Shown: positions 45,001 through 48,000 of the stretch, one piece after another
Numbering within the stretch: position 1 is the first letter of the stretch
Layout: every line of letters begins with the position of its first letter
NCBI RefSeq assembly: GCF_057098645.1
Contig: NZ_CM169472.1
Length of the DNA stretch: 64,000 nt
Reading direction: 5' to 3' (one strand)
Position numbers: made by a program

Positions 45001-48000
45001 GGAGGTGCTGCTGTAAATAGAACGTAGATAATGCGTTCACCTACTGTCAGTTCCGATACCGGATGCGGCGTGAACGCCTTATCCACCCTACAGGTCAGGC
45101 GCGGTCTGTAGGCTGATAAGACGAAGCGGTTTTAATGCAGCCAGTGAACGCCCTCGGCAGGCTGAAAGAACGCGTTATAGCGCATCTGAAAAGCATTAAT
45201 ATCCTGCATTTCAGGTTCGGTTTCGCGCAGAAAACCCAGCGCCAGCCTGACCTGAGCATCAGTAATGGGAGCGGCAAGGCGGGCTTTTTGTAAAATCCGA
45301 TGCCATTGCAGCAGGTTCTGTTCGCTACCATCGACAATGACAATTTGCCAGATGAGCAACACCTGCGCGGCGTTTTGCAGGTGCGACTCATCCGGACGAT
45401 GCAAATAACGTAAAAATTCGTCACCGGCTGACTTTCCCATTTGATCGACCATCGACTCCACGGGTACGACATCGATATTCAGCCGATCGCTGAGACGGCG
45501 AATCGCTTTTCTGGCCCCGGATGTCAGCACCCGAAAACCAACCACAAACACTACCGCCAGCGTGGCGAGCATTATCCAGATCATGAGTTCTCCTGCGTAA
45601 TCAGAACTCATGATATCTGGAAACCCTCGCCAGTTACTAATCCACCAGAATAATCTTCAGTGCAAACAGAGCTGCGACCACCACCACACACAGGTTCAGA
45701 TCGCGCCAGCGCCCGGTGCACACTTTCATGATGCAGTACGACATAAAGCCAAGTGCAATCCCTTCGGTGATCGAGAAAGTAAAGGGCATCATCACCGTGG
45801 TAACAAACGCAGGCACCGATTCGGTAAAATCATCCCAGTTAACGCGCGCCAGACTTGAGGTCATCAACACGCCAACAAAGATTAACGCTCCGGCGGTTGC
45901 GTAAGGAGGAACCATCGCCACCAGCGGTGAGAAGAACATAACCAACAGGAACATAACGCCGACCACAACCGCAGTCAGCCCCGTGCGACCACCGACTGCC
46001 ACACCAGAAGTACTTTCAATATAGGCGGTAACAGACGAGGTGCCGATAAACGCGCCCGCCACCGAACTACGCTATCAACATATAGCGCCTTATTCATATT
46101 GGGGAATTTACCGTTACTATCTATTAAGCCAGCTTTATCAGTTACACCAATTAATGTTCCTGATGAATCAAATAGGTTGATCAGCATAAAGGAGAAAATG
46201 ATACCGGCGAGTTCAAGTGTTAACGCGCCGCTCAAATCTACTTCACCAATGACGCCGCTAATATCAGGCGGAATGGAATAGACGCCGCTAAAATGAACAT
46301 CACCGAAAAATAATCCACAGCAAGACGTCACCACAATAGAAACAAGCACCGCGGCATGAAAATGACGTGATGACAACACGGTTATAATAAAAAACCCTAA
46401 AATACCTAACAACACGCCGTGAGAACTTAAATCGCCAATCATCACCAGAGTGTCTTTATTGGCGACAATAACGCCAGTATTTTTTAATCCCATTAAGGCG
46501 ATAAATAATCCGATTCCGCTGGTGATACCAATACGTAAACTTAATGGAATGTTGGAGATCATCCAGTACCGGATACGAAATAGCGTGAGCAAAAATAGCC
46601 CAATTGCGCCCCAGAATATCGCGCCCATCCCGGTCTGCCAGGAGATACCCATCGCCCCCACGACCACGAACGCAAAGAAGGCGTTCAGCCCCATTGCCGG
46701 AGCCAGCGCCACGGGTAAGTTAGCAAATATCCCCATCGCAATACTGCCGATACCGGCAATCAAACAGGTGGTAACAAACACCACTTTCGGGTCCATTTGT
46801 GCCGCGCCGAGGATTTGCGGGTTCACAAAAACGATGTACACCATGGTTAAAAAAGTGGTCATCCCCGCAATCAATTCTGTGCGGACGGTGGTCCCATGCT
46901 GAGGTAGTTTAAATAATCGCGAAAGCGTCCCTGATTCATTACTCACGTAATCGGTATTGTCATTATTCATTTTTTTGTCCATTGGAGGAGATTTAATCCC
47001 TTGCTTTTGTAAAACAAATGACAACAACGGTTCAGTGATAATTATCACATTTCAATTGCACATTAATGGATATTCTTTAATAATCTTGCGACATTTCTTT
47101 ATGATAAATAACAATCAAATTAATAAAATCAAAACGAGAAAAATATGAATAATTCCATTAACCATAAATTTCATCACATTAGCCGGGCGGAATACCAGGA
47201 ATTGTTAGCCGTTTCCCGTGGCGACGCTGTTGCCGATTATATTATTGATAATGTCTCTATTCTCGACCTGATTAATGGCGGAGAAATTTCCGGCCCAATT
47301 GTGATTAAAGGGCGTTACATTGCCGGTGTTGGCGCAGAATACACTGATGCTCCGGCTTTGCAGCGGATTGATGCCCACGGCGCAACGGCGGTGCCAGGGT
47401 TTATTGATGCTCACCTGCATATTGAATCCAGCATGATGACGCCGGTCACCTTTGAAACCGCCACCCTGCCTCGCGGCCTGACAACTGTTATTTGCGATCC
47501 TCATGAAATCGTCAACGTGATGGGCGAAGCCGGTTTCGCCTGGTTTGCCCGCTGTGCCGAACAGGCAAGGCAAAACCAGTACTTACAGGTCAGCTCTTGC
47601 GTACCCGCTCTGGAAGGCTGCGATGTTAACGGTGCCAGTTTTACCCTTGAACAGATGCTCGCCTGGCGGGACCATCCGCAGGTTACCGGCCTTGCAGAAA
47701 TGATGGACTACCCTGGCGTAATTAGCGGGCAGAATGCGCTGCTCGATAAACTGGATGCATTTCGCCACCTGACGCTGGACGATCACTGCCCGGGTTTGGG
47801 TGGTAAAGAACTTAACGCCTATATTGCTGCGGGTATTGAAAACTGCCACGAAAGTTATCAGCTGGAAGAAGGACGCCGGAAATTACAACTCGGCATGTCG
47901 TTGATGATCCGCGAAGGGTCCGCTGCCCGCAATCTCAACGCACTGGCACCGTTGATCAACGAATTTAACAGCCCGCAATGCATGCTCTGTACTGATGACC

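Follow-up and report, generated by a model that had tools for sequence, protein, structure and literature searches.

The window analysed here, a stretch of 64,000 nucleotides from an E. coli genome (NCBI RefSeq assembly GCF_057098645.1, contig NZ_CM169472.1), carries on its minus strand an NCS2 permease gene that appears in the ORF listing as two overlapping ORFs in different frames (Table 1). When 5426 complete E. coli genomes were searched by megablast with positions 45600-47100, this gene was identified as adeQ (yicO): the 1501 nt are matched at 100% identity in many O157:H7 and O145 genomes, while other E. coli lineages show 97-98.7% identity over a record span of 1502 nt. The position between adeD and yicN and the gene order of K-12 are both kept, as in the adeQ orthologues. 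The preliminary description of this DNA, made from the sequence alone, had named the gene adeQ/yicO, an NCS2 adenine permease, and the genome matches and their annotation bear this identity out, as the ORF listing does for the two overlapping frames.

The divergent neighbour adeD (ade/yicP) is also annotated as intact in genomes of the same lineage, with the product name 'cryptic adenine deaminase' in strain Sakai, and adeD has been described as cryptic and H-NS-silenced in E. coli K-12 (PMC2753651). Directly downstream of adeQ lies yicN, whose frame appears in the ORF listing as a longer ORF, 45132..45611, containing the annotated gene. Between nepI and yicN lie the overlapping genes of a RelE/ParE-family toxin and an HTH antitoxin. 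K-12 MG1655 lacks this pair at the corresponding position, and in strain 2014C-3075 the toxin gene carries a frameshift annotation. The LEE pathogenicity island (Sakai SpLE4, with ler, espG and other genes) makes up the upstream two-thirds of the window; just past its Sakai boundary lies a short fragment of an MFS-transporter pseudogene that contains an internal stop.

A second lesion in a purine-transport gene lies close to adeQ, in nepI, encoding a purine ribonucleoside efflux pump. BLAST comparison with K-12, Sakai and O55:H7 CB9615 revealed an in-frame deletion of 54 bp that removes the 18 residues LGLALGGFWAMSASLTMR (approximately residues 118-135); in intact nepI alleles, the 54 bp are flanked by the 6-bp direct repeat CCAGAC. 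This junction was present in only two of the 5426 complete genomes, O55:H7 USDA5905 and DEC5B, and the shortened gene is not flagged as a pseudogene by PGAP. Positions 38248-49297 share 99.88% identity with USDA5905 over 11 kb (13 SNPs, no gaps), and 99.85% with Sakai, in that case with indels. From the rare nepI deletion and the identity to USDA5905, the strain of the window is judged to be O55:H7-like and not O157:H7 proper.

Table 1. Features at and around adeQ, in window coordinates.
Feature	Position	Strand	Remarks
ORF 1	45975..47048	-	ends ...NMNKALYVDSVVRWRARL...ARG, then stop
ORF 2	45637..46062	-	begins MAGAFIGTSSVTAYIES...; 141 codons from GTG 46062
adeQ (yicO) pseudogene	45637..46970	-	from annotated ATG 46970 to original TAG stop at 45637; 1334 nt
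Translated frame from native start	45975..46970	-	331 codons; premature TGA 45975-45977
Stranded 3' part of adeQ, original frame	45637..46071	-	open from 46071; first start codon GTG 46062; TMS10-14
1-nt deletion site	between 46068 and 46069	-	C (coding) / G (plus strand) missing; codon 301 GTC reduced to GT-
adeD (ade/yicP), adenine deaminase	47145..48911	+	intact 588-aa ORF; divergent neighbour of adeQ
yicN (DUF1198)	45132..45584	-	intact; directly downstream of adeQ, same strand; coordinates from PGAP annotation of identical sequence
HTH antitoxin gene	44693..45016	+	overlaps the toxin gene
RelE/ParE-family toxin gene	44356..44709	+	between nepI and yicN, with the antitoxin gene
nepI	42986..44122	-	54-bp in-frame deletion, junction near 43770-43775
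MFS-transporter pseudogene fragment	about 40401-40574		coordinates converted from USDA5905/CB9615 annotation
LEE pathogenicity island	about 1-40300		Sakai SpLE4

The missing base and its distribution

Intact adeQ, as found in K-12 MG1655 and TUM14771, consists of 1335 nt (444 codons plus the stop), and the 1334 nt of the window gene are indeed one base short, as had been proposed. MAFFT alignment of the window adeQ with the K-12 and TUM14771 alleles gave a sole gap column, a missing C after gene position 902, which changes the intact sequence GATAGCGTCAGTTCGG into GATAGCGTAGTTCGG in the window. An alignment to intact E. coli adeQ had been suggested as a check in the preliminary description, which expected a single-base deletion near 46067-46069, within 46060-46075; the comparison with K-12 and three other intact E. 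coli alleles returned exactly one indel, with the gap at 46068/46069. Inspection of its context (GATAGCGT^AGTTCGG) revealed no homopolymer or repeat tract at the GCGT^AGTT site. The product read from the native ATG comprises 300 native residues, 31 out-of-frame residues (VRWRARLSAPRLLPPILKVLLVWQSVVARG...) and the premature TGA. The other frame, read from 46071, gives R-S-S-V-A-G-A-F-I-G-T-S-S-V-T-A-Y-I-E-S, so that the switch of frame does yield the permease sequence anticipated for the C-terminal half. Re-insertion of the C in silico restored a 444-aa protein with 2-4 amino acid differences from the four intact alleles, with 4 of 444 residues differing from K-12 and 2 from the closest intact allele examined, that of strain 2014C-3075.

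The occurrence of the deletion was traced with a query of 40 nt that has the junction in its middle and seeds in megablast only if the deletion is present. It was recovered in 331 of the 5426 complete E. coli genomes, 330 of them exact, including O157:H7 EDL933, Sakai, Xuzhou21 and 86-24 as well as several O145:H28 strains. The intact 41-nt junction was matched in 4123 genomes, and 6-11 genomes with adeQ alleles at least 99% identical gave no exact junction match. O55:H7 CB9615 has the identical 1334-nt adeQ; this copy, like those of O157:H7 PV15-279 and O145:NM FWSEC0002, is 100% identical to the window gene and annotated 'pseudo, frameshifted', and O55:H7 USDA5905 has the same 'frameshifted' annotation. 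The single indel relative to intact orthologues, the premature stop and the repetition in independent assemblies are those of a bacterial frameshift pseudogene.

Many other, unrelated E. coli have an intact adeQ that matches the repaired window sequence at 100% over the 352 nt surrounding the site, which makes the deletion a single event in an otherwise normal allele. When the lineage-private SNPs were included in a repaired query of 371 nt, no 100% match was found among the 5426 genomes, the best matches reaching 99.7% and all having the gap, and the collection therefore contains neither a revertant nor an intact ancestor of the lineage allele. This also answers the question of an independent assembly restoring the 444-aa ORF, for which no intact copy of the lineage allele was found in these genomes. 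By its distribution, the deletion predates the split of O55:H7/O157:H7 from O145:H28. Relative to the four intact alleles, the adeQ allele of the lineage has few private changes, at alignment positions 522, upstream of the frameshift, and 1105, 1168 (Ile390Val) and 1221, downstream of it, of which that at position 1221 is also present in one of the four intact alleles; the changes at gene positions 1104-1168 in the window's numbering correspond to window 45803-45867. Most of these changes are thus 3' of the frameshift, and they are too few to show relaxed selection.

The lesion is already known, because RefSeq annotation has it in the O157:H7 reference genome as well as in hundreds of other genomes. 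In all genomes of the lineage that were examined, the PGAP label reads 'adeQ, pseudo, frameshifted', and the gene is pseudogene ECs_4600 in the curated Sakai record (NC_002695.2). ECs_4600 and the PGAP entries of O157:H7, O145 and O55:H7 genomes have the same lesion at the same position and no difference from the window at the adeQ locus, the strain background of the window being O55:H7-like. Our literature searches, in which the term 'adeQ' was confounded with 'adequate', found no paper on the adeQ lesion in the library covered.

Predicted effect on the permease

The orthologue in K-12, AdeQ (YicO, b3664), was reportedly characterised by Papakostas, Botou and Frillingos in 2013 as an adenine permease of high affinity that belongs to the AzgA-like branch (COG2252) of the NCS2/NAT family, and papers citing that work name both PurP and YicO as adenine transporters. 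The K-12 and window genes share the adeD-adeQ-yicN synteny and 98.1% DNA identity, with 25 nt differences and one gap over 1335 nt; unlike in K-12, codon 301 of the window gene is one base short, and the 331-aa product would be without TMS10-14.

Both parts of the gene are recognisable as Xan_ur_permease (PF00860), with scores of 90.1 bits for the N-terminal fragment, 51.9 for the C-terminal one and 153.4 for the repaired protein against a gathering cut-off of 27; NCBIfam had no model matching AdeQ. Of the 389 profile positions, 3-278 are covered by residues 32-301 of the N-terminal fragment and 281-387 by residues 1-102 of the C-terminal ORF, so that one domain has been cut in two between profile positions 278 and 281. 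Together with the premature TGA, this leaves no complete 14-TMS domain in one frame, as a functional NCS2/NAT member would have.

The conserved Asp/Asp/Glu residues are D268, D299 and E319 in AdeQ and D267, D298 and E318 in AdeP; the latter numbers agree with 267, 298 and 318, which are said to have been given for PurP by Papakostas et al. in 2013. The frameshift in codon 301 keeps D268 and D299 and removes TMS10-14 including E319 of the YIES motif, which lies 18 codons past the break and is absent from the 331-aa product. According to the account of AzgA and the E. coli homologues in PMC11527162, these proteins have 14 TMS with a core domain formed by TMS1-4 and TMS8-11, substrate contacts are made in TMS3, TMS8 and TMS10, including the TMS10 Glu (E394 in AzgA), and the equivalents of the contact residues are irreplaceable in E. 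coli homologues. The closest solved structure, Arabidopsis AZG1 (PDB 8irl), is homologous to repaired AdeQ over residues 13-417 (E = 3e-61); as a plant cytokinin/purine transporter with longer loops, it serves here only to locate the lost region. In this alignment, conservation is highest in the segment that immediately follows the break, SSVAGAFIGTSSVTAYIESTSGVAVGGRTGLTA (...GTSxVTxxIES..GGRTGLTA). Given the loss of TMS10-14 with E319 and of half of the core and gate domains, we infer that truncated AdeQ is unable to transport adenine.

The paralogue AdeP (PurP) shares 74% full-length identity with repaired AdeQ and the same conserved Asp/Asp/Glu. Unlike adeQ, adeP is intact in O157:H7 PV15-279, where it lies about 53 kb away and not beside adeD, which fits the earlier suggestion that adenine uptake would proceed via other transporters once adeQ is lost.

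A lineage-fixed pseudogene and its alternatives

We consider adeQ in this window to be a true, lineage-fixed and already annotated pseudogene produced by ordinary gene decay (probability of about 0.93). One C would have been lost from codon 301 of a normal adeQ in the common ancestor of O55:H7, O157:H7 and O145:H28. Ribosomes starting at the native ATG would then make 300 correct residues (TMS1-9, reaching two residues past Asp299) and 31 wrong ones before the stop, and the product would be without TMS10-14 and hence without the Glu of TMS10 that contacts the purine in AzgA-like NCS2 transporters. High-affinity adenine uptake in the lineage would fall to the intact AdeP, and the loss of adeQ may plausibly have been tolerated because AdeP is redundant and the adeQ/adeD locus poorly expressed. 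The deletion apart, the lineage allele is clean, with only two amino acid differences from the closest intact allele, and shows no secondary decay of the kind that would prove long-term neutrality; the clade is young, though.

The preliminary description had left the choice between a real pseudogene and an assembly error, of which the former stands and the latter falls, given the junction count, the non-homopolymeric site and the annotation. Single-base indels are the commonest assembly artefact, and a base present in the real genome but lost in sequencing or assembly would leave adeQ intact. However, 331 complete genomes of three serotypes, produced over many years in many laboratories and on many platforms, share the junction, the GCGT^AGTT context is no homopolymer, and an intact version of the lineage allele is absent from all 5426 genomes; on the junction count and the repaired-allele searches, this explanation was rejected as extremely improbable. 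The same data make it still harder to believe in a phase-variable switch, in which the indel would toggle the gene on and off within populations: beyond the 1-nt size of the indel, nothing speaks for it, the site has no repeat tract, and all 331 carriers are in the same state, with no revertant of the lineage allele.

Two further readings would rescue the permease in spite of the deletion. Programmed -1 ribosomal frameshifting or transcriptional slippage could in principle restore full-length AdeQ by a shift within the 97 nt (gene positions 900-996) in which the frames overlap; immediately upstream of position 900 the original frame is closed by a TAG at 897-899, and the stop of the translated frame occupies positions 994-996. 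Yet scanning of this overlap found no slippery heptamer of the form X XXY YYZ and no long homopolymer, the only run of at least four bases being GGGG at position 989, and the conserved block of TMS10 would be garbled by a shift at any point other than that of the deletion. AdeQ is, moreover, encoded in one frame in all other E. coli sampled (four alleles read fully and 4123 intact junctions), as in the homologues examined outside the clade, so that the frameshift is no conserved feature of the family, and recoding of this kind is very unlikely. Slightly less improbable, though still at long odds, is a split gene, in which a TMS1-9 fragment and a separately initiated TMS10-14 fragment would assemble into a working permease. 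LacY and some other secondary transporters can be functionally reconstituted from co-expressed halves, and an ORF of 141 codons in the right frame has its start, GTG 46062, only two codons inside the stranded part. Against this, neither GTG 46062 nor GTG 46002 is preceded within 20 nt by a Shine-Dalgarno-like sequence, the candidate start is situated in a frame that is actively translated, the N-terminal fragment bears a basic out-of-frame tail of 31 residues, and the break separates TMS9 from TMS10 inside the core domain instead of falling between domains; outside the clade, a split adeQ was not seen. The sequence lends support neither to programmed frameshifting nor to a functional split gene.

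That the loss of AdeQ was selected or is of consequence in this lineage, either by lowering, in the gut of ruminants or humans, the uptake of adenine or of toxic purine analogues or through a 331-aa N-terminal fragment that modulates AdeP, appears unlikely, if somewhat less so than these rescues. The fragment might pair with AdeP because NCS2 transporters work as dimers, and the rare in-frame deletion of nepI near adeQ would fit selection on purine traffic at this locus.

As a lineage-fixed pseudogene, adeQ has small importance, little beyond bookkeeping, and opens no long-standing question. An apparent adeQ frameshift is not to be 'corrected' in assemblies of these strains. The lesion provides a clean clade marker for O55:H7, O157:H7 and O145:H28. 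It leads to the prediction that pathogens of this lineage would have only one high-affinity adenine permease, AdeP.
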